Source: a virus
Virus genome (UHGV): UHGV-0138835
DNA: 48,857 nucleotides
Strand: one strand, 5' to 3'
In this document: one piece after another, positions 1 through 31,875 of the stretch
Layout of the letters: every line of letters starts with the position of its first letter
How positions within the stretch are numbered: the first letter of the stretch is position 1
Notes under the pieces: model-generated
Told to the model about the DNA's origin: nothing
Seen by the model: only the letters and a program-made list of their open reading frames with translations
Databases searched by the model: none
Made by a program: the position numbers and the translations under genes

Positions 1-2375
1 CAGAAGATCTTTATAAAAAAGTTAAGGAAAACGCCGATGATATTGGTCAGCATGAGTCAAGAATTGACTCATTAGAAGTGTACAGCGAAAAAGTTGGCAG
101 CGAACTGGAGCAAGCAAAAGCAAGCCTGCAAAACGCGTCACTTGCTCTTATTAATAACTCACTTGCACAGACAAACACGCGCGTAACTCTTACCGCTCAG
201 TACAAGAAAGGCAGGACAGAGACTAAAGCGGAAATTGACCGTATTGACAACGTTATCGCTGAAGAGAAAAAAGCGACAGCGGAATCACTGGAAACCATCA
301 CAGCAGAAATGAATACGATGGATTCCAACCTTAAAGGTCAAATCTCTAACGTGCAACGAGCAGTAGCTGACGAGGCCAGCGCCCGCGCTGAAGCTATTAA
401 CGGTGTAAACGCCTCAATAAGCAATCTCGACAAGAAAACTGACGCCAGCGTTAACCGCCTTGATCAAGCTATCGCCGACGAAACAAGCGCACGCACCCAG
501 GCAGTCAGCGACGTTAACGCAAATATCTCAGCGCTTGATAAGAAAACTGACGCCAGCGTTAAACGTTTGGATCAAGCGATTGCAGACGAAACAAGCGCCC
601 GCAGCGAAGCCATCAGTGGAGTAAATGCCTCGGTATCAGCGCTCGACAAGAAAACTGACTCAAGTATAAGCCGTCTTGATAAGGCAATAGCAGACGAGAC
701 GAGCGCGAGAACTGAAGCCATTAACGGTGTGAAGGCGTCAATTTCCACACTTGACGGCAAGGTTACAAGTAACGTTAATCGTCTTGATAAGGCGATTGCA
801 GACGAAACGAAGGCACGCACTGACGCTATCAGTAGCGTGAATGCAAGCATTAGCACACTTGAAAGCAACACCGAATCAGAAGTAAGCAGACTTGATCAGG
901 CAATCGCTGACGAGGCCAGCGCTCGCGCACAAGCCATCAGCGGTGTGAATGCTTCGATAGAAAGTCTTGAAAGTAAAACCGATGCGAGCGTTTCCCGTCT
1001 TGATAAAGCAATAGCAGATGAAACGCAGGCAAGAAGCGACGCAATAACAGAGGTTAAAGCTGATTTAACAACACTAGAAAGCAACACAAACGCCAGCGTT
1101 AAGCGTCTTGATCAGGCAATTGCAGACGAAACAAGCGCCAGAGGACAAGCTATCAGCGAAGTTAGCGCAAGTGTCAGCACGCTTGATAATAAAGTGACAA
1201 GCAACGTCACCAGGATGGACAAAGCCATCGCCGACGAAACAAAAGCACGCACAGACGCAATAAGCGGCCTCAGTGCATCGCTTACCAGTACGATTAATTC
1301 AAAAGTATCTGAAGTGTCGACAGCGCTCTCTACGCATGAGGAATCAAGCGCGGAAAAATTTAGCCAGATCTCAGCGTCTTTCGAATCAGTAAACTCAAGT
1401 ATTACAGAATGGTCGCAGGCAATGGCAACGGCTGACGAGGCATTATCAAGCAAAATTGATCAGTTGACAGTAACAGTTAACGGGAACAAAACGGCGATAG
1501 AGACGACATCGAAAGCATTAACCGACTTCAAAGGTAATGTTGATGCGTCGTACTCTATCAAGCTGGCGACCGACAACAACGGAATGAAATACGCAACAGG
1601 TATGTCGCTTGGCCTCACTGGTGACGGCACTAACTTTCAGTCGCAGTGTATTTTCCTTGTTGACCGTTTCGTGTTAATGACCGCAGCAAACGGCACATAT
1701 ACAACGCCTTTCTATGTCACCAATGGCGCAATGTATGTAAGAGAAGCGTTTATTAAGGACGGAACTATCAACTCCGCCAAAATAGCTGATCAAATACAGT
1801 CAGTTAATTACAGCTGGGAAAACGGTACAGGATGGGCGATAAATAAAGCCGGTGACGCAGTATTTAACCAGGTAACCGTAAGGGGTACGGTATACGCTTA
1901 TGCTGGTGTGTTTAACGGTACTGTTTACGCAACTGGCGGTAAATTTACTGGAGCAGTTGAAGCTACAAGTTTTGTTGGTGACGTAGCAAGTATGTCAGTG
2001 ATAAACGAGGATGTATTTCCGTCAATGAGGGGAAATGGCAGCAGGCGCGTTTCGAAAACTTATCTTGATTCAAGTTCATCAAGTTTATCAAAAACAGTTT
2101 ACGTTATGATTCCGTATGATTTGTCATACTATACATATAGTGAATCTTCTCGCATCAATGTAACTATAAATATAAGCGGACACCAAAAAACAATTAATAT
2201 AGAAAGGCCAGCATCAACCCCAGCAATGTCAACTGTCGCGGTGCACTGTGTATCTGGCCTCACATACCCAACAATTACAGTAGAGGTGACGGAAAACTTT
2301 ACCAATACATCTAATGCAGCAATAAGAAAACCAGGTTTAATACTTATAACAAGAAGTTCAGGAACATGGATATAA
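1..2375 (+). CDS. tail fiber / host-specificity protein, 5'-partial (reading frame open to window start, codon phase from nt 3)
   Basis: No in-frame stop upstream of the track ORF start at 78; nine tandem 36-aa repeats of consensus RLDxAIADETSARxxAIxxVNASISxLDxKTxxSVx, then a Gly/Thr/Tyr-rich beta-type C-terminus typical of fibers; position just before a second fiber and attP/int. Confidence 0.7.
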   Translation, partial: EDLYKKVKENADDIGQHESRIDSLEVYSEKVGSELEQAKASLQNASLALINNSLAQTNTRVTLTAQYKKGRTETKAEIDRIDNVIAEEKKATAESLETITAEMNTMDSNLKGQISNVQRAVADEASARAEAINGVNASISNLDKKTDASVNRLDQAIADETSARTQAVSDVNANISALDKKTDASVKRLDQAIADETSARSEAISGVNASVSALDKKTDSSISRLDKAIADETSARTEAINGVKASISTLDGKVTSNVNRLDKAIADETKARTDAISSVNASISTLESNTESEVSRLDQAIADEASARAQAISGVNASIESLESKTDASVSRLDKAIADETQARSDAITEVKADLTTLESNTNASVKRLDQAIADETSARGQAISEVSASVSTLDNKVTSNVTRMDKAIADETKARTDAISGLSASLTSTINSKVSEVSTALSTHEESSAEKFSQISASFESVNSSITEWSQAMATADEALSSKIDQLTVTVNGNKTAIETTSKALTDFKGNVDASYSIKLATDNNGMKYATGMSLGLTGDGTNFQSQCIFLVDRFVLMTAANGTYTTPFYVTNGAMYVREAFIKDGTINSAKIADQIQSVNYSWENGTGWAINKAGDAVFNQVTVRGTVYAYAGVFNGTVYATGGKFTGAVEATSFVGDVASMSVINEDVFPSMRGNGSRRVSKTYLDSSSSSLSKTVYVMIPYDLSYYTYSESSRINVTINISGHQKTINIERPASTPAMSTVAVHCVSGLTYPTITVEVTENFTNTSNAAIRKPGLILITRSSGTWI
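348..1319 (+). repeat. 9 x 108-bp tandem coding repeats (36-aa units) inside the tail-fiber gene
   Basis: Repeat units read directly from the translated ORF (aa 91-414); explains the spurious minus-strand ORFs 572-871, 896-1087, 1112-1453. Confidence 0.85.
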
Positions 2376-2380
2376 AAAAT

Positions 2381-2408
2381 AACCCCGCTTCGCGCGGGGT
2401 TTTCTTTT
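2381..2408. terminator. bidirectional rho-independent terminator (stem CCCCGC/GCGGGG flanked by A-run and T-run)
   Basis: Hairpin ccccgc-ttcgc-gcgggg followed by ttttctttt on + and preceded by aaaaaataa; sits between convergent genes. Confidence 0.6.
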
Positions 2409-2655
2409 AGTAGTTAGCTACACAGTTAGAAGGGCTACCGATGCGGCGCATGTTGTGATCGAGTTCGTGACACCATTGACCAGTATAAGGCAGTTTTTCA
2501 GTGTCATAGACAAGATGCCCGTTAACATCATAAACAACATCCTGTGGAATTACTCCACTATTCGGCAGGTTATGCAATGCGGCTTCCTTATCAACAGCAC
2601 AGCCAGTAAGAGCTACAGCCGCAGCAAACAAAACCACTTTGAACATGTTTTTCAT
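2407..2655 (-). CDS. small lipoprotein (82 aa), candidate superinfection-exclusion / receptor-blocking lipoprotein (Cor/Llp-like by context only)
   Basis: N-terminal signal peptide MKNMFKVVLFAAAVALTGC with lipobox LTGC; antisense gene wedged between two tail-fiber genes. Confidence 0.55.
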   Translation of the reverse strand: MKNMFKVVLFAAAVALTGCAVDKEAALHNLPNSGVIPQDVVYDVNGHLVYDTEKLPYTGQWCHELDHNMRRIGSPSNCVANY

Positions 2656-2832
2656 TTTTAAAGCCTCATTCTCGTTTGTTCATCCGGTTCATCCGGTGGC
2701 TTAAATATCCGACAAAAGCACATTTCGTATATTGACACAAATCAACAAATACATTTTGTGTAAGCAGAAAATGCAACACAGATCACAAAATGGTAGAATT
2801 ATTCCGTTAATTAACAAAATGGAGTCATTGCG

Positions 2833-5800
2833 ATGATTTACACAACTGGAACAATTGCCATCAACGGCAATGCTGTTACAGGCACGGGAACAAACTTTTC
2901 CGCGCCGCTTTCTCTCATTCGTGTAGGCTGCACGCTCATTGCAATCGGCAATCCGGTGCAGATCTTTACCATCACAGAAATTAAAAGCGGTACTGAACTG
3001 TCAGTGACGCCAGCAGCTAACCCTGCAATCCCTGCGGGAACAAAATTTAGTATTCTGCTATCTGACTCAATCTCAGTTGATGGTCTTGCTCAGGACGTAG
3101 CTGAAACCCTGCGTTACTACCAGGGCAAGGAAACAGAGATCGCCGCCGCTGTCGAGTGGTGGGAAGATTTTGGCGGAGAAGGTCAGTTGGATCAGCTTCT
3201 TACCAACATTCGCGCAGAAACAGCCAAATCAACCGCCAATGCTCAAAAAACAGAAACTGACAAAAACGCAGCAGAAGCGTCAAAAACAGCGGCTGCAAAA
3301 TCCGCCACGGCAGCGAAAACATCAGAAACCAACGCTAAGGCAAGTGAGACAGCAGCAAAGACAAGCGAAACCAACGCCAAAACGTCAGAGAACAGGGCGC
3401 AAGAATATCTAAATCAAATGGGAAGGCTTACCAGTCCAATGGTTCAATGTGATTGGCCCGTTACAACTGGTACGACTGACGCTTACGTTAAGATAGCTAA
3501 AGTTACCAACCCAGGTAGCAGCTCCTGCCACATGACACTAATGATCACTAATGCCGGTAACTACGGGACAAGTTACGGAAACATTGATTTTGTCGAGATC
3601 TCCGCTCGCGGTTTTCCCGATGAACTGAACGCCGATAATGTATCTAAATACTTGAGTATCCGCCGCTTAGGTTCACCAAATCTGGCAACTGATAATCAGA
3701 TGCGTTATGGGCTTGTTAAGGGCGATAACTTTTTTGAGGTCTGGTGTCGTCAGCGAGCATTTACCGGAAGCGCAAAGGTCGCTGTACTGGCGCAGACTAA
3801 TCAAAACACGGAATTATACATTCCCGAAGGATTTGTTAAACAAGACAATGCACCATCAGGATTTATTGAAAGCCCGGCAGCAAGGATTTACGACCAGGTA
3901 AACAAACCCAGCAAGGCGGATTTGGGCCTTTCTAACGCTATGCTTATAGGCGCTTTTGGTCTTGGCGGTACTGGAATAGGGTTGACTGGTTACATGACTG
4001 ATCAGGAACTACTACAAGAGCTAAGGGCTAAAGGTGGGTGTTTCTGGAGATCAGGAAAACCAACAGGTAGCACGGCGACCATTTATAGCCACGGTTCTGG
4101 TATATTCTCGCGGTGCGCCGATACGTGGTCAGCGATCAATATCGACTACTCAACCGCGAAGGTTAAGGTCTATGCCGGTAACGACAATGGACTTAACAAT
4201 AACACTTTTGCCGTTAATGAGCTATACGGAACTAAAAACAAGCCGTCGAAATCAGATGTTGGACTTGGCAACGTAACGAACGATGCGCAGGTGAAAAAAA
4301 TCGGCGATGTTATGTCTGGTGACCTGGCGATCAAAAAAGGGACACCGTCATTCTTTCTGCGGTCAGACAGTGGAACCGCCCATGTATGGTTCCAAAATGC
4401 GGATCAGACGGAACGCGGCGTTATTTTTGCGCCTACAAATTCTGAGACGCTTGGTGAAGTTCACATCAGGGCTAAAAACGCAAAAGGTGAAACAAACGGT
4501 GATCTTATTGTTCGCCACGACGGGGTGGTTGAGGTTCAGAATCTCACAGCGGCTAAAAAAGCCAAAAGCGTAACCGCAGAATTTGCAAACACAAGCACTA
4601 GCTCCGATGATACCACGGTAAATATCAAAGGATCACAGCATACGCCTTTGGTTTTAACGCGCAACAACACAATTAAAAACTTATCCATTGGGTTTAAGGT
4701 TGATGATGTTGATCAAAAATACCTGGGTATAGCTGGCGACGGTGATTTGTATTTTGGTAGTTATTCTGACCACACAAAAAACAGCAAAGTGATCACACAA
4801 GCAATACTCGATAGCGGGGTAACGGTAGGCGGTAAAACAACCTTTTCTGACCTTGCCACATTCAGTGCTGGTATATATGGGGCCATAGAACCGGAAATAA
4901 TTAACAGCAAGACTGTAGATCTTAACAACCTTGTCATTAAGTCCTCTGATAAAGGTTCAGTTAAGTATTATCAATGCACATCTTCCGGGGCTGGTAACTC
5001 CATTACCAATAAGCCTGACGGCGTAGGCGGTAACTTTTTGCTACGTGTAGAATCTATTCGTAAGGTTACGGATTCAGATTATACAAACTTGCAAACCCTG
5101 GTTGGCACAGACACGAAACAAATATACGTTCGCTATTGTGAAAATGGCAATTGGTCCGCATGGAGTCAGGTTGTTGTTTCAGGAAGGAATCAGGATGTAA
5201 ACGTAAGGTCGTTAACCACTGGTACCCCTGTAAAATCTGGTGGCGGGCAAATTGATGTACTTGGGAGTACGTCAGATTATAGCGCGATGAATTGTACTGT
5301 GCGTGGTGTTGATAGCACTGGAACCAATTCGGCGTGGTCGGTAGGTACATCAGAAAGCACAGGAAAAATGTTGTACCTGAAAAACCACAGAAGCAGCGCT
5401 CAAGTGCTGTTAAATGGCGATGACGGCGCGGTGCAACTACTAAGCGGTACCGTCAACAGTGCTACAGCACAGGCGCTAACCATCAACAAAGATGAGGTTA
5501 ACTCAACTGCCGATTTAGTAATTAGAAAACAAACAGGGACTGGCAGTCGTTTTGCTTTACAGAACGCAGGTAATGCAGAACTACCGTTTTCTGTCAGTGT
5601 GTGGGGTTCCAGTACTCGACAAAACGTTTTTGAGGTTGCAACGTCTGCTGCGTATCTGTTTTATGCGCAAAGAACGCCAGCAGGCCAGTTGTTTGATGTA
5701 AATGGCGCTATTAATTGCACAACGCTGAATCAGTCATCAGACCGCGACCTTAAAGACGATATTCTCGTTATCAGCGACGCGACGAAAGCAATCCGTAAAA

Positions 5801-6150
5801 TGAACGGATACACCTACACGCTCAGGGAAAACGGGATGCCTTATGCTGGCGTTATTGCACAGGAAGTAATGGAGGCGATACCAGAAGCTGTGGGATCGTT
5901 TACTCATTACAGTGAAGAGTTGCAGGGACCAACGGTTGACGGCAACGAGCTACGCGAAGAAACGCGTTATCTCAATGTTGACTACGCCGCAGTAACTGGC
6001 TTACTTGTCCAGGTTGCACGCGAAACGGATAACCGCGTCACCGAACTGGAAGAGGAAAATGCCAGCTTACGCGCTAACATTGCTGTAATGGATGAGCGTA
6101 TCGCAAAACTTGAAGCGCTTGTCAGTAAGTTGACCGGAAGCGAAGAATAA
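2833..6150 (+). CDS. tail fiber protein with C-terminal intramolecular chaperone (peptidase S74-like) auto-processing domain
   Basis: 1105 aa; the C-terminal ~130 aa (DLKDDILVISDATKAIRKMNGYTYTL...YLNVDYAAVTGLLVQV...EEENASLRANIAVMDERIAKLEALV) matches the recalled endosialidase/T5 L-shaped-fiber chaperone domain; SD GGAG 8 nt upstream. Confidence 0.8.
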   Translation: MIYTTGTIAINGNAVTGTGTNFSAPLSLIRVGCTLIAIGNPVQIFTITEIKSGTELSVTPAANPAIPAGTKFSILLSDSISVDGLAQDVAETLRYYQGKETEIAAAVEWWEDFGGEGQLDQLLTNIRAETAKSTANAQKTETDKNAAEASKTAAAKSATAAKTSETNAKASETAAKTSETNAKTSENRAQEYLNQMGRLTSPMVQCDWPVTTGTTDAYVKIAKVTNPGSSSCHMTLMITNAGNYGTSYGNIDFVEISARGFPDELNADNVSKYLSIRRLGSPNLATDNQMRYGLVKGDNFFEVWCRQRAFTGSAKVAVLAQTNQNTELYIPEGFVKQDNAPSGFIESPAARIYDQVNKPSKADLGLSNAMLIGAFGLGGTGIGLTGYMTDQELLQELRAKGGCFWRSGKPTGSTATIYSHGSGIFSRCADTWSAINIDYSTAKVKVYAGNDNGLNNNTFAVNELYGTKNKPSKSDVGLGNVTNDAQVKKIGDVMSGDLAIKKGTPSFFLRSDSGTAHVWFQNADQTERGVIFAPTNSETLGEVHIRAKNAKGETNGDLIVRHDGVVEVQNLTAAKKAKSVTAEFANTSTSSDDTTVNIKGSQHTPLVLTRNNTIKNLSIGFKVDDVDQKYLGIAGDGDLYFGSYSDHTKNSKVITQAILDSGVTVGGKTTFSDLATFSAGIYGAIEPEIINSKTVDLNNLVIKSSDKGSVKYYQCTSSGAGNSITNKPDGVGGNFLLRVESIRKVTDSDYTNLQTLVGTDTKQIYVRYCENGNWSAWSQVVVSGRNQDVNVRSLTTGTPVKSGGGQIDVLGSTSDYSAMNCTVRGVDSTGTNSAWSVGTSESTGKMLYLKNHRSSAQVLLNGDDGAVQLLSGTVNSATAQALTINKDEVNSTADLVIRKQTGTGSRFALQNAGNAELPFSVSVWGSSTRQNVFEVATSAAYLFYAQRTPAGQLFDVNGAINCTTLNQSSDRDLKDDILVISDATKAIRKMNGYTYTLRENGMPYAGVIAQEVMEAIPEAVGSFTHYSEELQGPTVDGNELREETRYLNVDYAAVTGLLVQVARETDNRVTELEEENASLRANIAVMDERIAKLEALVSKLTGSEE

Positions 6151-6179
6151 TGGGTGATGTGCGAAGAACATCGCCGCGC

Positions 6180-6208
6180 GAAACGAGGCTAACGCCTCGT
6201 TTCTTTTT
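6180..6208 (+). terminator. rho-independent terminator after tail-fiber gene
   Basis: gaaacgaggc-taac-gcctcgtttc hairpin followed by TTTTT. Confidence 0.65.
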
Positions 6209-6229
6209 GTGTACCAAATAGTGACCAAA
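6208..6229 (+). repeat. 22-bp perfect direct repeat, copy 1 (tgtgtaccaaatagtgaccaaa); candidate integrase arm-type site / attP-region repeat
   Basis: Exact 22-mer recurs at 6439-6460, flanking a ~210-bp AT-rich tract just upstream of int. Confidence 0.5.
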
Positions 6230-6438
6230 ATGATAAATCAAAAACAAAAACATAACATAACACATTGAATACAAATGAATTTTTCATTAAGTTATCCATT
6301 CAAAAGATAAGTAGGTAGCGCCATTTCTATCATTTCATATCGTGTCACATCGTCACCGTTTCACGTTGATTTCAAAAGAAATATTTATTCTATCGTGTCA
6401 TATCGCTCCCCATCGTGTTACTATCCATGCGTAAAATG

Positions 6439-6460
6439 TGTGTACCAAATAGTGACCAAA
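6439..6460 (+). repeat. 22-bp perfect direct repeat, copy 2; ends 2 nt before the int start codon
   Basis: Identical to 6208-6229. Confidence 0.5.
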
Positions 6461-6462
6461 TT

Positions 6463-7662
6463 ATGCTTACAGATACCAAATTACGAAACATTCACGGCAA
6501 GCCATACGACGGCCCGGAAGAAGTACCGGACGCTGGCGGATTGTCTGCCAGGATAAGCCCGCGAGGAGTTATATCTTTCCAGTATCGCTACCGATTCAAC
6601 GGCAAGCCTCGACGGATGAAGATCGGCACATACGGAGAAATAACACTCAAAGAAGCGCGCGCGGAGGTGGCGGCGCACAAAGAAGTATTAAACTCAGGTC
6701 GAGATCCATCGGTAGCAAAAAGAATGCACCTTTCTCGCGTTACGACACGGGCAACGGTTGAGGATATTGTCAGGGAGTACATGGAATCAACGCAGGCAAG
6801 GAGCATGGTCAACTATAAGCAGGTTGAAGCGATGTTGAATAAGCACGTCATCAGGCCATACGGTAGCTATATAGTCGATGATATGGACGCTATGATGTGG
6901 GAGGGAGTTTTTAGAAAGGTAGCTAATGGTGGTGCGCCAGTTCAGGCGGGAATAGTTCTCAACAGAATGAAAGCGGTAATAAAATACGCCATGCGCCGCC
7001 GCCGCGTGGATCGTGACGACATATCGTTACTACGCGTGAAAGACGTTGGTAAAAACCCAGCGCAAGGGAAGCGGGTTTTGTCAATACAAGAGATTCGCCA
7101 TCTAATCAGCCTTATAGACAGTTCAAAAATGGCGCGTCTAAATCAGATATTGATGAAACTGATTATATTCACCGGATGCAGGACAAGCGAGCTAACAAAC
7201 GCAAGGCGAGAACATTTCGATCTTGATAACTGCGTGTGGACTGTGCCTGGTGCATTGAGTAAGAACAGAAACGAGTTTAAACGCGGTTTATCCGACGTTA
7301 GCGTCGATTTATTGCGTGAGGCTATGGATCTGCATAGCTTTGATTTTGTCTTCGTTCCTGTGCTTTCTGGAAGGGATGAGGCGGTGGACAGAAGCGTACC
7401 GAAAACAGCGGCAAGGGATTTAATGATGAGGATGGGCGGCGAGCCGTGGTCGTGTCACGATCTACGCCGCACCGTGAGGACAAACCTTTCAGCGCTTGGC
7501 GTTGCGCCTCACGTCGCTGAAAAGGTTTTGGGGCATAAGCTGGCGGGGATGTTGGCTATATACGATCAGTATGACTATGTGAGGGAACAAATAGAGGCGA
7601 TGAATAAACTGGCTGATTATTACATGAAGCCCATTGATTTACAAAATGAAATAACGTCCTGA
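6463..7662 (+). CDS. int: tyrosine recombinase / phage integrase (P4-type)
   Basis: N-terminal arm-binding-like region (ARISPRGVISFQYRYRFNGKPRRMKIGTYGEITLKEARAE) and C-terminal catalytic region with HDLRRT...LGH; start taken at ATG 6463 (the track ORF begins at 6415). Confidence 0.85.
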   Translation: MLTDTKLRNIHGKPYDGPEEVPDAGGLSARISPRGVISFQYRYRFNGKPRRMKIGTYGEITLKEARAEVAAHKEVLNSGRDPSVAKRMHLSRVTTRATVEDIVREYMESTQARSMVNYKQVEAMLNKHVIRPYGSYIVDDMDAMMWEGVFRKVANGGAPVQAGIVLNRMKAVIKYAMRRRRVDRDDISLLRVKDVGKNPAQGKRVLSIQEIRHLISLIDSSKMARLNQILMKLIIFTGCRTSELTNARREHFDLDNCVWTVPGALSKNRNEFKRGLSDVSVDLLREAMDLHSFDFVFVPVLSGRDEAVDRSVPKTAARDLMMRMGGEPWSCHDLRRTVRTNLSALGVAPHVAEKVLGHKLAGMLAIYDQYDYVREQIEAMNKLADYYMKPIDLQNEITS

Positions 7663-7838
7663 TAACGGTAAAGAGAGCCGCCGTGCTTTAATGCTGGCAT
7701 TCCCTTAACAGGTTCAGGGAATGGAGTACCTGAATCCTTCCATTTTTTAACCAGTTTAAAAAAGGCGGACTTACTAAGCCCGCCCAACATTTTTTGCACT
7801 TGCTCACGATTAATAAGAATTGCGCCGATCTTATCCAT
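7620..7838 (-). CDS. excisionase / AlpA-family small DNA-binding protein (putative Xis)
   Basis: 72 aa, HTH-like, convergent with and overlapping the int 3' end; family assignment from pattern only. Confidence 0.45.
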   Translation of the reverse strand: MDKIGAILINREQVQKMLGGLSKSAFFKLVKKWKDSGTPFPEPVKGMPALKHGGSLYRYQDVISFCKSMGFM

Positions 7839-8500
7839 TATCTTTTCCCCGTGTATTCAACGTGTCCGATACATCCATCAATAATAGCTTGCGCCATGTT
7901 GCGATAATCGCACGAAAATTCGTTGTCGCGGTTAAAGTTAATCTCTTTCGCCGCATCTTCACCGATAACCTTAGTAGCTAGTGCGAAAGCTATTTCAGCA
8001 AGCGCCTTTTCTTTCGGATCTACATGCAGCTTGAAAGCGCATGTTGTCCATGATAGCGGCCTCTCTAAGCATAAATCTTCCTTGCTTTCACATATAGCCC
8101 ATTTGTCACCAACATATTTAAATTTAACGACATCTAGAACCGTTCCGCTCGTAAGACCTACACAATCAAGCCACACGCCAACTGGAGGCTTTTCGCCTGC
8201 CAACCATTCCGTTTTTTCTTGTTGCGTTTCGCAATCATGCCGCTCATCTTCGATTAATTCATCAATGATTTCACTTTCTTTATTCATGCCGTCATCATCC
8301 TTATTCGATAAATTAGCGTATTTATCAAATTTCCAGCTTGCAGCCATAACCGAATAAGTGCCGCCAGTGTCAGCGCGAACACCCAATAAATAGTATGATC
8401 CAAAATTATATTCTGTGCGGCATGTTGTTACCTCAAACGATGGGTAACACTCAGGGTTAGTGCGATGGCTAATCACGCCAATTGCTTTAAGTTTATTCAT
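7838..8500 (-). CDS. hypothetical protein (220 aa), integrase-proximal accessory gene
   Basis: Long ORF, translationally coupled to downstream gene (TAATG overlap); no family recognised. Confidence 0.4.
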   Translation of the reverse strand: MNKLKAIGVISHRTNPECYPSFEVTTCRTEYNFGSYYLLGVRADTGGTYSVMAASWKFDKYANLSNKDDDGMNKESEIIDELIEDERHDCETQQEKTEWLAGEKPPVGVWLDCVGLTSGTVLDVVKFKYVGDKWAICESKEDLCLERPLSWTTCAFKLHVDPKEKALAEIAFALATKVIGEDAAKEINFNRDNEFSCDYRNMAQAIIDGCIGHVEYTGKR

Positions 8501-8514
8501 TTGCTTATCCTCGA

Positions 8515-8691
8515 TTACGCCACAGTTACATTGTCAACTTTGATAAAATATTCAGGATGATTTTCTATTTCGTTCTTGAAGTGCGCGTGACACAATCGCC
8601 ACTCCCGCGCCTGGTTGTGAAAATAGTAAACGTATTCGCCATCAATCTTGTATAAAATGCCTGTAGGTTTAGCCATGTAGTAACGAACCAT
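8515..8691 (-). CDS. hypothetical small protein
   Basis: Track ORF 8515-8745 trimmed to the internal ATG that overlaps the NinB stop by one base. Confidence 0.3.
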   Translation of the reverse strand: MVRYYMAKPTGILYKIDGEYVYYFHNQAREWRLCHAHFKNEIENHPEYFIKVDNVTVA

Positions 8692-9122
8692 TATTGCCCC
8701 CAGCGTTTTATAAATTCCTCGTTTAACTTCGTATCGCCAGACCACTGAACACCATGTTCAGCGCCGAACGAGTAGATCAGTTCGATTAATTCGCTAAATT
8801 CTGCTTTACCCATCCGGCTGGTTGACGTTCCCAGCACAACAAATCCTGATTTATCAAGATTAGGGACGACGCCATATTTTTTAAGCCCGGCAGTAAATAC
8901 CGCTTTCCAGTCTTCAGGTGACAGTTTTTTGCCGTACCAATTAACCTGATCGCTAATGTCGGTTAACAGCGCCCATAAAAGGCTATTTTGACTAAGCGAG
9001 CGGGTTTTCTCCTTGATGGTAATAATCAGCGGGCTTTTGCTATCAGGCTGGATTTCACTTATCTGCCTGATAGCGTTTTCTTTTACTGCGTCGTTTACTA
9101 TTTCAAATCTTATTTGCCTCAT
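8691..9122 (-). CDS. ninB: NinB recombination protein (lambda NinB/Orf family)
   Basis: Strong similarity to recalled lambda NinB (…RSLDQN..LWA.L.D.S.QV.W.G…VPNL…GFVV.G.STSRM…FSELIELI..FG…GV.WS). Confidence 0.85.
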   Translation of the reverse strand: MRQIRFEIVNDAVKENAIRQISEIQPDSKSPLIITIKEKTRSLSQNSLLWALLTDISDQVNWYGKKLSPEDWKAVFTAGLKKYGVVPNLDKSGFVVLGTSTSRMGKAEFSELIELIYSFGAEHGVQWSGDTKLNEEFIKRWGQ

Positions 9123-9837
9123 GGTTAGATAACGCCTCGTTTATTCTATTTGATGCAATTTCGAAATATTTTTCATCCTTTTCTATGCCGATAAAACGCC
9201 GATTAGTATTAATGCACGCAACGCCAGTAGTCCCGCTTCCCATGCAGTTATCAAGAACTAAATCACATTCGTTGGTATATGTTTTAATTAAATATTCCAT
9301 AAGCGCTACAGGCTTCTGTGTTGGGTGCAGCTTCACCCTATCTCGCGTAAACTCTAGTACCGTAACTGGATAGCGTTCGCCGCCACTCACCGTAGTTACA
9401 ATACCCGATGGATTGTAGTTAGATGTTTCCCCTCCTTTTTTACATTTATACGGCTTAAATCCCTCCCTCATTTGAGGGTTGTAAGTTGGCGGCTTATCAT
9501 AGAACACCAACACATTTTCATGATCCTTTAGCGGAGCGCGTTTAGCGTTCAGAAACCCTGTTCCAGCCTCTTTGCGCCAAATCCACTCATATCGAAGCAT
9601 ACCAAGATTGGACGCGCCTAAAACCTTGTCAAACGGCGTCTGGGCAGTCAGCACAATCGCCCCACAGCTTATGCGCTTGTATTCATCCCATAGAGACGGC
9701 AAATCAATAACGCTATCCCATTTGTTTCGCGTAGTCCCATACGGCAAATCACACAAAATCAAATTAATACTACAGTCTGGAATAGACTTCATAACCTCCA
9801 GGCAATCGCCTAACAATAATGCAATACCTTTACTCAT
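9103..9837 (-). CDS. DNA methyltransferase, beta-class N6-adenine/N4-cytosine (orphan)
   Basis: N-terminal motif IV DLPY (DPPY-like) and C-terminal motif I LDNCMGSGTTGVAC. Confidence 0.8.
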   Translation of the reverse strand: MSKGIALLLGDCLEVMKSIPDCSINLILCDLPYGTTRNKWDSVIDLPSLWDEYKRISCGAIVLTAQTPFDKVLGASNLGMLRYEWIWRKEAGTGFLNAKRAPLKDHENVLVFYDKPPTYNPQMREGFKPYKCKKGGETSNYNPSGIVTTVSGGERYPVTVLEFTRDRVKLHPTQKPVALMEYLIKTYTNECDLVLDNCMGSGTTGVACINTNRRFIGIEKDEKYFEIASNRINEALSNHEANKI

Positions 9838-9846
9838 GTTATAGCC

Positions 9847-10044
9847 TCATAATACACCGTTACTATTTTTCCACTGTGCCCGCGCATACATAATCGCCTG
9901 CAAAGAAATTAGCCGCGAGCTTGTCATGAAAGCGCCTTTTAAATATTTCATATCAACCGTGACAGGCTTATCAGGATCGTCGCCGCGCATGTATTCCGCA
10001 ATCGTGCTCAAATCCTCAACGGTTAAATCTAATTCCTTGTTCAT
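9847..10044 (-). CDS. hypothetical protein (65 aa)
   Basis: ORF in operon context. Confidence 0.3.
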   Translation of the reverse strand: MNKELDLTVEDLSTIAEYMRGDDPDKPVTVDMKYLKGAFMTSSRLISLQAIMYARAQWKNSNGVL

Positions 10045-10054
10045 GACTTACCCC

Positions 10055-10261
10055 TTACACAATCCGCATTGTGTTTCGTAATTCCCCGCGCAGCGCCTGC
10101 AAAGCGTAACGAATCGGCACAAAAGCCCGGTTAAATTTTACGTGCCTGTATTTGCGCATTAGTGGAGGCGTATAAACCATCGCGCCGCAAGAATTGCATG
10201 GAAATTTAAAGTGAGATTCATCAATGAATGTTTCAACTGAATAAAAAATTACACGTCTCAT
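10055..10261 (-). CDS. hypothetical protein (68 aa), Cys-containing
   Basis: ORF in operon context. Confidence 0.3.
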   Translation of the reverse strand: MRRVIFYSVETFIDESHFKFPCNSCGAMVYTPPLMRKYRHVKFNRAFVPIRYALQALRGELRNTMRIV

Positions 10262-10818
10262 AATTCCAACCCCGTTTCGCCGTTAAGTTTTTCGATCTCA
10301 AACACTGGTTTATCAGGAAGCAGGCCGTTATTTTTACGGTATTCGTTTAATAAGTTACTAAAATTAAATGCGACAACATTTGAATAACCATAAAAACGCG
10401 CGTTTCTGAAAAAATATTTACCGTCAAACTTATTAACGGTTAATAGATTCTCACTTCCTAACATCCGTAATATTCTGCCGACCTTTCCTTTGTTTATATT
10501 AATATTCAATTCATTCTTAACATCTTCCGCTGAAAAATACCCGCTGCTATTTGAAAACAAAGGGATTATATCCCTTATCGCCATTTCTCTTACTGACTTC
10601 AAGCAATATGATAATCTTTTACTATTTAGATCTACTTTTATAATAACGCCATCAGAAACCAAAGCATCCAAAGCGCAAATTATTTCACCTTCAGGTCCAG
10701 GAATAGATTTAACTATCGTTCCCTCACCTGAAATAACAGCGTCATTTAAAAAATCAATTATTTGTTGTTGGTATGAAGTTTTCATTTTCAGCCTCGCTTT
10801 AAACGCGATAACAGCCAC
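10258..10818 (-). CDS. hypothetical protein (186 aa) in a visibly AT-rich segment; possible acquired accessory gene
   Basis: Sequence is markedly AT-rich by eye compared with the flanking helicase and methyltransferase genes; no family recognised. Confidence 0.4.
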   Translation of the reverse strand: MAVIAFKARLKMKTSYQQQIIDFLNDAVISGEGTIVKSIPGPEGEIICALDALVSDGVIIKVDLNSKRLSYCLKSVREMAIRDIIPLFSNSSGYFSAEDVKNELNININKGKVGRILRMLGSENLLTVNKFDGKYFFRNARFYGYSNVVAFNFSNLLNEYRKNNGLLPDKPVFEIEKLNGETGLEL

Positions 10819-10861
10819 CAGAAAGCGGTAAACTTTCCGGTAAGCCGTTTGCTCATATTGA

Positions 10862-12277
10862 TTAAAAAGATGCGTTATTCTGATTGTTTCGTTGGCTAAA
10901 TCGGCTTGTACGATGATTCATGGACTGAATGCACGCGGCGGCGGCCTTACCCTGGTCGCATGGTAATATATTGCCGTTGTCATCAAACCGCTGGTAAATA
11001 GTACCAGTTTTCCCGTGACGGTTTTTAGATACAATTATTTCCATGTATTCGCGTGCTACAGACTGCTCATCGTAATAACCATCGCGGTAAACCATGATGA
11101 TCCTGTCAGCGTCTTGCTCAAGGTTCCCTGAATCTCGAAGATCTGAATTATTAGGGCGCTTGTTAGGTCGTTCCTCAACGCGGCGGGATAACTGGGCCAG
11201 CGCCAACACTGGTACACGCAATTCTTTCGCCATCATCTTCAACGACCATGACAATTGCCCTACAGCGAGATCGTGACGTTCGGCCTTAGCCAGCTTCATC
11301 AACCCGATGTAGTCAATCATTACCATACCCAGGTTGGGGTGTTCCTGTTTCATCCGTTCCGTGGTGGCGCGTATTTCCTCAACCGTTAACTGCGACGCGT
11401 CAACGATCCACACATCAAGATTAGCAAGTGCACTCATACCCTGGCCAACATGCGCCCACCCCTCATCATCAAGTTTTACCGGATTGCGCAGGCAGTCAGT
11501 TGATAAATTGCCAGCGCCAGCTATAGCGCGCTCAGTCATCTGATCGAGCGACATTTCAAGCGTGAATAACAAAACACCAACCCGCTGATCCTTGCTGCCA
11601 GGGTAAGGGCGCTCAGCAGCAGCGCGGGCAATCGCCAGCGCCAACGCAGATTTACCAGACCCAGGGCGTCCGGCGAGAAGTACCAAATCAGTGGCGTTAA
11701 TACCGCCTAACATTTCGTCGAGCGGTTCTATCCCTGTTTTGATGTTGTCAGAATTGACACCGCATTCCATGCGCTTGCTTAAAACCTCTGTGTATTCCTG
11801 TACCGCATCGCGCAACAGAACAGGGATAATCTTGTCTTTCGTTACCTTTAATTTTGAATACCGGGAATCAAAATCTTTCATCGTCTCTTTGACGACCTCA
11901 AGCGTACCCGTTTCCAGTTTGTAGCGCATATCGTCGATGAGTTCCAACATCTGACGCCGCTGGTGCTCTTCCCGTAGTAGCTGTGCGTACCCCTTCAGGT
12001 TGGCAGCAGAAGGACACGATCGCGCCGTTTGCATTAGCGGTACAAAGTTTTCGTTGCCAATCTCATCGCCAACCAATAACGCATCGATAAGATTCCTGTT
12101 TCTGGCTTGCGCCCTGATAATTTCAAACGCACGTTTATACAGCGGAATCGTGAACACTTCAGGATCAAGAGTGGCGAGAACATCTTGCGCGTTAGGAGTT
12201 AGGCCGCCTAACAGCAGCCCGCCGATAACTGACGCTTCACGTTCCTGCCGTAGTGAGTTTATTTGCTCAGTTACCAT
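10862..12277 (-). CDS. replicative DNA helicase, DnaB family
   Basis: N-terminal DnaB-like ERAVLGGLLL-type motif (EASVIGGLLLGG), Walker A GRPGSGKSA, length 471 aa. Confidence 0.85.
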   Translation of the reverse strand: MVTEQINSLRQEREASVIGGLLLGGLTPNAQDVLATLDPEVFTIPLYKRAFEIIRAQARNRNLIDALLVGDEIGNENFVPLMQTARSCPSAANLKGYAQLLREEHQRRQMLELIDDMRYKLETGTLEVVKETMKDFDSRYSKLKVTKDKIIPVLLRDAVQEYTEVLSKRMECGVNSDNIKTGIEPLDEMLGGINATDLVLLAGRPGSGKSALALAIARAAAERPYPGSKDQRVGVLLFTLEMSLDQMTERAIAGAGNLSTDCLRNPVKLDDEGWAHVGQGMSALANLDVWIVDASQLTVEEIRATTERMKQEHPNLGMVMIDYIGLMKLAKAERHDLAVGQLSWSLKMMAKELRVPVLALAQLSRRVEERPNKRPNNSDLRDSGNLEQDADRIIMVYRDGYYDEQSVAREYMEIIVSKNRHGKTGTIYQRFDDNGNILPCDQGKAAAACIQSMNHRTSRFSQRNNQNNASF

Positions 12278-30723: not shown

Positions 30724-30924
30724 ATGTTCGACAGAATACGGGAGGCGTGTGCGTATGTGACTGGTGCAGTAACCGCTTTTTTCGGTGCTATAACCATCAA
30801 TGACGTTGCAGTGTTCGTTGGTATCTTATCAACCATTGGCACATTTGCCGTTAATTATTACTTCAAATCACAGGAGAACAAGCGAGCGCAAGAGGAACAC
30901 GACGCGCGAATGGGGAATAAGTAA
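30724..30924 (+). CDS. holin (pinholin-like, two TM domains)
   Basis: 66 aa, two hydrophobic helices, basic C-terminus, directly upstream of a SAR endolysin as in phage 21. Confidence 0.7.
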
Positions 30925-30925
30925 A

Positions 30926-31417
30926 ATGATTAGCCAATCGCTGAAAAACAAGATTGTTGCGGCGGCGGCTGGTGGGGCGATCGCTATTGCGGCGGTGATG
31001 GTAAAAGATCTTGAGGGTGTGGAGTACAAGGCATACAGAGATGTCATCGGTGTTTACACGATATGTTATGGACACGTCGGGAAAGACATCATGCTTGGTA
31101 AGACTTACACGCAATCAGAATGCGATGCTTTGTTAAATAAAGATCTGCACAAGACCGCAAAAGCGATTGACCCATATATCAAAGTCGAAATATCAGATTT
31201 TACCCGCGCAGCACTTTATTCATTCGCCTATAACGTAGGCGCTACCAATTTCAAAACATCAACCTTATTGAAGCTACTCAATGACGGCAAGAAATCAGAG
31301 GCGTGCGCACAGCTTAAACGCTGGGTATACGCTGGCGGTAAGAAGTGGCAAGGCCTGGTAAACCGCCGCGAGGTTGAATATGCCGTTTGCGAATGGGGTG
31401 AAACATGGACAAGGTGA
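30926..31417 (+). CDS. SAR endolysin (GH24 lysozyme with N-terminal signal-arrest-release domain)
   Basis: Close match to recalled phage 21 R21 (GGAIAIA…LEGV.Y…[28 protein letters not shown]……YSF.YNVGA.NF.TSTLL……W.YAGGK.W.GL..RRE.E). Confidence 0.85.
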
Positions 31418-31875
31418 AGACGTTAATCATCGCCGTTGTTGTTTGCATTATTGCCAGCCTTACAGCCGTAACGTGTTATTACCAGGGTGAGGCAGCAAGG
31501 TTACAGGAAGAAGTCACGGTAACGAAAGGCGCACTGAAAACGGCAAGTAACACTATTCAGCAGATGAAGGAGCGAAACGCCGAACTGTCAAAACTTGATA
31601 AGAGGTATCACGATGAGATTAAAGCTATCAGATCTGACATTGCCGATCTGCGCACTGGCATTGATAACGGCACTATCAGGCTGCGCGTCAACGCAATACC
31701 CGTGCGAGTGTCCGACCCCGCCGGAACCGCCAGCGCCATTGATGGAGCCGCCTGTAGACTCACTCCCGACGCTGAATCGGCTTATCTATCCCTCAGAGAA
31801 CAACTAAAAGAGAAAGATGCGAAGATAACCGCGCTTCATGGCTACATCAAAACGCAGTGCTTACGCAAAGAATAA
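31405..31875 (+). CDS. Rz: Rz i-spanin
   Basis: N-terminal TM helix then coiled-coil periplasmic domain; contains embedded +1-frame Rz1. Confidence 0.75.
31613..31807 (+). CDS. Rz1: Rz1 o-spanin (lipoprotein embedded within Rz)
   Basis: Lipobox ITALSGC, proline-rich mature peptide, ATG 31613 with AGAGG SD, fully inside Rz in another frame. Confidence 0.7.
   Translation: MRLKLSDLTLPICALALITALSGCASTQYPCECPTPPEPPAPLMEPPVDSLPTLNRLIYPSENN

Follow-up and report, generated by a model that had tools for sequence, protein, structure and literature searches.

The closest described relative of the gene studied here is gp116 of the coliphage mEp010 (mEp010_116, 'Lpp010'), a type-C Lpp that was cloned as 'pLpp010' (Negrete-Mendez et al. 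2025, PMC11893012). When pLpp010 was expressed in E. coli W3110 from an IPTG-induced plasmid, no plaques were formed by mEp010, mEp044, mEp554, or lambda, and mEp013 escaped the exclusion (PMC11893012). LamB is required by mEp010, mEp013, mEp044, and mEp554 alike (PMC11893012). With the unrelated type-A lipoprotein Lpp021 (gp81 of mEp021) in the same vector, exclusion was limited to mEp021 and mEp515, both OmpA-dependent (PMC11893012). Lpp021 comes from the same phage group and also excludes phages with the same receptor as its own phage, but it is of a different sequence type and is tied to OmpA-dependent phages. The exclusion data for Lpp010 come from plaque or spot assays (PMC11893012).

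Two other lipoproteins serve as points of comparison. Llp of phage T5 is a small lipoprotein (~60 aa when mature) with a single intramolecular disulfide; its gene stands next to the receptor-binding gene in divergent orientation, and the protein inactivates the outer-membrane receptor of its own phage. This receptor is FhuA, whose plug Llp jams from the periplasm (FhuA-Llp structure, PMC9586334). LamB has no plug and no known allostery (PMC9586334), so the Llp mechanism cannot match in detail for a lipoprotein directed at LamB. Of phages that target LamB, Bas23 among them, Van den Berg et al. (2022) wrote that they 'likely do have SE lipoproteins' (PMC9586334). Cor, known from phi80, HK022, N15, and T1 (NF047972, PHROG 1119), is an exclusion lipoprotein that acts on FhuA-dependent phages.

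We analyzed a single stretch of 48,857 nucleotides, virus genome UHGV-0138835, referred to as the window. The original prediction of an 82-aa open reading frame on the opposite strand at 2407..2655 was confirmed from the frame and its translation. This gene, lpp, lies on the minus strand, with the stop codon included in these coordinates, and is annotated here as the type-C Lpp exclusion lipoprotein of mEpimmI phages; its product is MKNMFKVVLFAAAVALTGCAVDKEAALHNLPNSGVIPQDVVYDVNGHLVYDTEKLPYTGQWCHELDHNMRRIGSPSNCVANY. The protein was 96.3% identical to Lpp010 over its full length (79/82 residues). The differences were M4V in the signal peptide and V44G and N45S in the most variable loop of the family. 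It also matched the family profile PHROG 12984 'lipoprotein' with an E value of 9e-27 over aa 7-82. A Shine-Dalgarno sequence, GAGG, is located 8 nt before the lpp ATG (2664..2667, minus strand) and is invariant in six phages. Homologues were present in 44 phage records, 21 columns were invariant in an alignment of 23 family members, and the dN/dS of lpp against close relatives was 0.04-0.08, indicating strong purifying selection. Together these mark lpp as a real gene rather than a chance reading frame.

The precursor begins with a basic n-region and a hydrophobic core, followed by the lipobox L16-T17-G18-C19 (2599-2610), which fits the pattern [LVI][ASTVI][GAS]C. As read from the sequence, the signal peptide comprises aa 1-18 (2602..2655, minus strand) and ends in L-T-G ahead of Cys19, whose codon is 2599-2601; the N-terminus reads MKNMFKVVLFAAAVALTG, and the chain continues CAVDK... 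from the cleavage point on. A signal peptide with a lipobox had been predicted originally, and the invariance of Cys19 among 23 homologues bears this out. The residue at position +2 of a lipoprotein decides its sorting by the Lol rule. Here, it is Ala, and the outer membrane is the predicted destination. The mature domain of 64 aa (2410..2601, minus strand) was divided from family alignments into a variable tether, aa 20-30, and a conserved core, PNSGV.P...DTEKLP.TGQWC...RRIGSPSNC..Y. In the same 23-sequence alignment, C78 was invariant along with Cys19, and C62 was nearly so (at least 90%); C62 and C78 probably form a disulfide in the mature protein. AlphaFold2 gave models of low confidence both for the full precursor (pLDDT 55.8, 23-sequence alignment) and for the mature domain (pLDDT 62.8, 18-sequence alignment). 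Foldseek comparison of the low-confidence model with the PDB returned no match below E 4.8. A profile search of PDB sequences returned nothing below E 0.48, with no Llp among the matches.

The gene lies directly 3' of gpJ on the opposite strand, a slot that the window shares with mEp010, mEp013, mEp044, mEp554, MagusPhagus, Bas22, Bas23, and EP23. Originally, it was placed between two tail-fiber genes, and this description holds for the downstream border, which is formed by a side (lateral) tail fiber gene (2833..6150, plus strand) with a C-terminal Peptidase_S74 intramolecular chaperone domain. The upstream gene, by contrast, is not a generic fiber but the 3' part of gene J, encoding the central tail fiber or tail tip (1..2375, plus strand, frame open to the window start). 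It carries the Pfam domain Phage_Tail_Tip and matches the 'host specificity protein J' of related phages. Its distal ~130 aa (1986-2375, plus strand) are the presumed receptor-binding tip. Gene J also contains a long array of ~36-aa repeats (LD.AIADETSAR...) at window positions 300-1400, in which Tandem Repeats Finder reported a 108-bp period at 426-659. Variable-length repeats in the repeat-bearing part of J have been described in the mEpimmI paper (PMC11893012).

J and lpp converge on a common terminator. The 31 nt between the J stop (2375) and the lpp stop (2407) are filled by a GC-rich hairpin at 2381..2401, which scored as an intrinsic terminator on both strands, in agreement with the bidirectional terminator proposed at the outset. 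The records of mEp010, mEp013, mEp044, and mEp554 have terminators annotated at this position. On the other side of lpp, a divergent intergenic region of 177 bp (2656..2832) was 89-94% identical among six phages. Synonymous sites in the adjacent lpp differed by 23-47%, so the intergenic region was conserved 3-4 times better, which suggests that it is constrained by divergent regulatory signals. The second fiber gene had been credited with a promoter region here, and this is weakly supported. An extended -10 element, TGGTAGAAT, found in a relaxed promoter scan at 2791-2799 on the plus strand, lies ahead of the side-fiber ATG and is invariant, but a scan of 2200-3000 for sigma-70 consensus sites found no promoter. 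The relaxed scan yielded nothing convincing for lpp itself, the best candidates being ATGACT-19-AATAAT and TTGTTA-16-TACCAT. A tandem repeat, TTCATCCGG in two copies, is present near the 5' end of lpp (~2681-2698, plus strand). Open reading frames of 37-42 aa that phanotate called upstream of lpp in the mEp records were treated as spurious, as the frames are weak and non-conserved in the window.

Beyond this locus, window positions 6280-12000 were 92-93% identical to mEp010, mEp013, and mEp044, and positions 2352-11998 were 87% identical to MagusPhagus. These matches place the relatives of the window among the 'mEpimmI' (mEp021-like) non-lambdoid temperate coliphages. The likeness to mEp010 extends to the lipobox, the slot between J and the side fiber, the opposite strand, the shared terminator, and an intergenic region that is 93% identical. 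The J tips of the two phages, however, are of different classes, with 21% identity over the distal 130 aa. Prophage copies of window positions 2300-2900 were found at 99.2% identity in a few E. coli chromosomes. Some match to this segment was present in 26/5426 complete E. coli genomes, and in 10 the match was nearly full-length. A tyrosine integrase gene (6415-7662) directly follows the side tail fiber, and from this placement the window is in vegetative (attP-joined) order rather than in the order of an integrated prophage; attP is expected at about 6150-6415.

Related prophages carry other versions of the slot. In an mEpimmI-like prophage of E. coli M15, cor occupies the place of lpp, behind upstream sequence common with window positions 2731-2888. 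With cor standing there behind the same upstream region, the slot after J behaves as an exchange site for exclusion genes. In this prophage (L005:3796-6167), two extra small ORFs lie between J and cor, and cor is separated from the side-fiber gene by an IS903B insertion. A lambdoid prophage of E. coli O68:H12 strain 97.3 (L004:5037-5534) encodes a chimeric Lpp homologue downstream of a lambdoid gpJ. The N-terminal half of this protein resembles Bas22 and the last 26 residues match the mEp/window type exactly, so recombination within the gene is implied. The start annotated for this homologue, giving 166 aa, is over-extended.

Members of the lipoprotein family were confined to the tail modules of phages and prophages. 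Among 1.84 billion representative proteins, a profile search recovered three genuine clusters (at 50% identity) and no bridge from the family to Cor or Llp. Two giant repetitive proteins from the same search are probably spurious. Outside the temperate phages, homologues were found in the same slot and orientation after gpJ in Seuratvirus (Seurat, CAjan, Bas21-24), Nonagvirus (9g), and Dhillonvirus (EP23, PNS1, HH3). These were 50-66% identical to the window protein overall and ~70-77% identical over its C-terminal 52 residues (aa 31-82). They share the family, position, orientation, and LamB association of the window lipoprotein, but they have a shorter Gly-rich tether in place of AVDKEAALHNL. 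Their phages also differ in being virulent, and the likely role of the gene in them would be protection of progeny from debris rather than protection of a lysogen. The BASEL carriers Bas21, Bas22, Bas23, and Bas24 are all LamB-dependent (S5 Table, PMC8594841).

The J tips fall into two classes. Class I includes mEp010, mEp013, mEp044, mEp554, Bas22, 9g, and HK97; class II (the Seurat/WildeMaa/EP23 type) includes the window, MagusPhagus, Bas21, Bas23, Bas24, and EP23. Tips of the two classes were 21-25% identical over the distal 130 aa and still detectably related (27-32% identity, E 1e-4 to 1e-6). With the last 129 aa of the window tip as query, matching tips were found in 32 phage records, all 32 of which also encoded the lipoprotein, and the matches include the LamB-dependent Bas21, Bas23, and Bas24. 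Close records of the mEp010/HK97-type tip (>=60% identity) numbered 12, and the lipoprotein was present in 10, the exceptions being two HK97 records. HK97, which adsorbs to LamB (PMC6832061), is the only close exception to the co-occurrence of tip and Lpp. Its J tip (NC_002167 18642-19028) shows 70% identity to the class I tip of mEp010, and the Lpp gene is absent. The window tip, at 39-55% identity to those of MagusPhagus, Bas23, and EP23, falls by sequence in the HK97/Seurat LamB-binding group, and we infer from this that LamB is the receptor of the window phage.

The sequence of the lipoprotein follows the phage backbone and not the tip class. The proteins of the window (class II) and mEp010 (class I) are 96% identical, and those of Bas22 (class I) and Bas23 (class II) are almost identical. 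A candidate co-variation of the Lpp loop at aa 44-45 with the class of J tip was rejected, as the loops of Bas22 and Bas23 are identical. Near-identical lipoproteins are paired with tips that are only 21-25% identical, and lambda is excluded in spite of its unrelated J tip; both points speak for an action of the lipoprotein on the receptor rather than on any one phage protein.

Taken together, we consider it probable (roughly 0.8) that this small outer-membrane lipoprotein makes the cell refractory to phages that use the LamB maltoporin as terminal receptor. The original prediction of a receptor-blocking exclusion factor is supported in two ways, namely by the exclusion of LamB-dependent phages, including lambda, by the 96.3%-identical Lpp010 (PMC11893012) and by the strict co-occurrence of the gene family with LamB-type J tips. 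The exclusion role stands, although its likely target is LamB and not FhuA. For the window allele, exclusion of LamB-dependent phages is supported by extension from its 96%-identical orthologue; the data for Lpp010 concern mEp phages with class I tips and lambda, whereas the window phage pairs its Lpp with a class II tip. As to the route of action, we infer lipidation, a location at the inner leaflet of the outer membrane, direct binding to LamB, the side of the membrane involved, and the stage that is blocked, as follows. The signal peptide of 18 residues would be cut at the lipobox and Cys19 acylated, after which the mature protein of 64 residues, having Ala at +2, would be delivered by the Lol pathway to the inner leaflet of the outer membrane. 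In this position, the conserved and probably disulfide-locked core may bind LamB, and a J tail tip meeting LamB in this state would fail to bind productively or to trigger DNA ejection. In a lysogen, the benefit would be superinfection exclusion of the phage's own kind and of lambda-like competitors. In lytic growth, progeny would not be wasted on debris, which would account for the gene in virulent Seuratvirus and Dhillonvirus phages as well. How LamB would be disabled is more finely balanced. We see an even chance that the mechanism differs from the plug jamming of Llp, either through insertion of the core into the channel from the periplasm or through exposure at the cell surface. Were the core inserted into the LamB channel, maltodextrin uptake should also suffer. 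Were the mechanism indeed unlike that of Llp, the escape of mEp013 would reflect an ongoing arms race in which J tips are pitted against the receptor as modified by Lpp.

Other ways of arriving at exclusion were weighed against this reading. The lipoprotein might be flipped to the cell surface and sterically mask the extracellular loops of LamB, an arrangement that has been raised for exclusion lipoproteins directed at receptors lacking a plug, such as LamB and LptD (PMC9586334). Partial masking of an epitope would fit the J-variant-specific escape of mEp013, a phage that depends on LamB and has an Lpp of its own almost identical to Lpp010, so that exclusion evidently depends on the J variant. 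However, no surface-export signal is known or was detectable in the lipoprotein sequence, Cys19 is separated from the conserved core by a short tether (~11 residues), and T5 Llp, once claimed to be external, proved to be periplasmic (PMC9586334). On balance, we regard surface masking as unlikely.

The block could also fall after adsorption, during penetration by the tail tip or tape-measure protein or during transit of DNA through the periplasm, and leave LamB itself untouched. HK97 gp15 and T4 Imm/Sp are examples of such a block. Plaque and spot assays, from which the published exclusion data derive, are compatible with it, and a lipoprotein of the inner leaflet of the outer membrane would face the periplasm, where ejection proteins act. 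Against this, the co-occurrence of the gene with a LamB-type tip spans four unrelated backbones with different tape-measure and injection proteins, and lambda, which injects by a different route (ManYZ) from HK97 (PtsG), is excluded as well (PMC6832061). We therefore hold a post-adsorption block to be rather improbable. That exclusion is indirect, with overproduction of the lipoprotein lowering the level of LamB through envelope stress or an assembly defect, is very unlikely. The published test did use IPTG-induced expression from a plasmid, but the LamB-dependent mEp013 still plates on cells expressing Lpp010, so functional LamB must be present in them, and the unrelated Lpp021 does not exclude LamB phages from the same vector. 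Hardly any credence is left for the gene product being a member of the Cor/Llp family that acts on FhuA. The protein is a small lipoprotein whose gene borders a receptor-binding gene, T5 llp too is oriented divergently to the receptor-binding gene of its phage, and the PHROG Cor family (PHROG 1119) gave a marginal match (E 0.058). That match covers aa 4-29, the signal peptide. The comparison with Cor and Llp drawn originally is thus an analogy of function, since profile searches and alignments detected no homology to either outside the signal peptide. With hhalign, the family alignment aligned with Cor over residues 1-22, the signal peptide and lipobox (probability 4.8%), and likewise with T5 Llp over residues 1-22 only. 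Searches of NCBIfam returned signal-peptide matches without a hit to the Cor model NF047972, which a genuine Cor matches at 52.7 bits, and Pfam and PADLOC searches returned nothing meaningful. The cysteine pattern differs as well: the mature chains of Llp and Cor carry one Cys close to each terminus, and both cysteines of the lipoprotein described here lie in its last 21 residues. Finally, the phages associated with the family use LamB and not FhuA. At the level of sequence, membership in the Cor/Llp family is refuted; the likeness to Cor, which is non-homologous yet sits in the same slot of the related prophage in strain M15, and to Llp is one of function and genome position. Equally hard to credit is a lysis lipoprotein (an o-spanin of the Rz1 type) or a housekeeping lipoprotein with no part in exclusion, to which the small size and lipobox might point. 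The phage has a separate lysis cassette 28 kb from lpp, with an endolysin (30800-31417), an Rz-like i-spanin (31405-31875), and, embedded in the latter, a canonical proline-rich Rz1 o-spanin (31595-31807) with the lipobox LSGC. This separate Rz/Rz1 pair excludes a spanin role. The lipoprotein itself is not proline-rich, and its family occurs only in phage and prophage tail modules.

The function of the family is already known: it was described in 2025 from an orthologue with 96% identity, after the family had drawn attention in 2021-2022. The window contributes a new allele together with a new combination of J tip and Lpp. What remains of interest is how a lipoprotein of 64 residues inactivates a porin that has no plug, and the specificity of exclusion for J variants. 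More broadly, receptor-matched exclusion genes can be found reliably in the slot that follows gpJ in siphophages. One small family travels with LamB-binding J tips through temperate mEpimmI phages, a lambdoid prophage, and virulent Seuratvirus, Nonagvirus, and Dhillonvirus phages, and the presence of lpp in a phage would predict its use of LamB. Lysogens carrying lpp are predicted to be resistant to lambda-like and Seurat-like phages, a resistance that is relevant to phage therapy cocktails and to host-range prediction.
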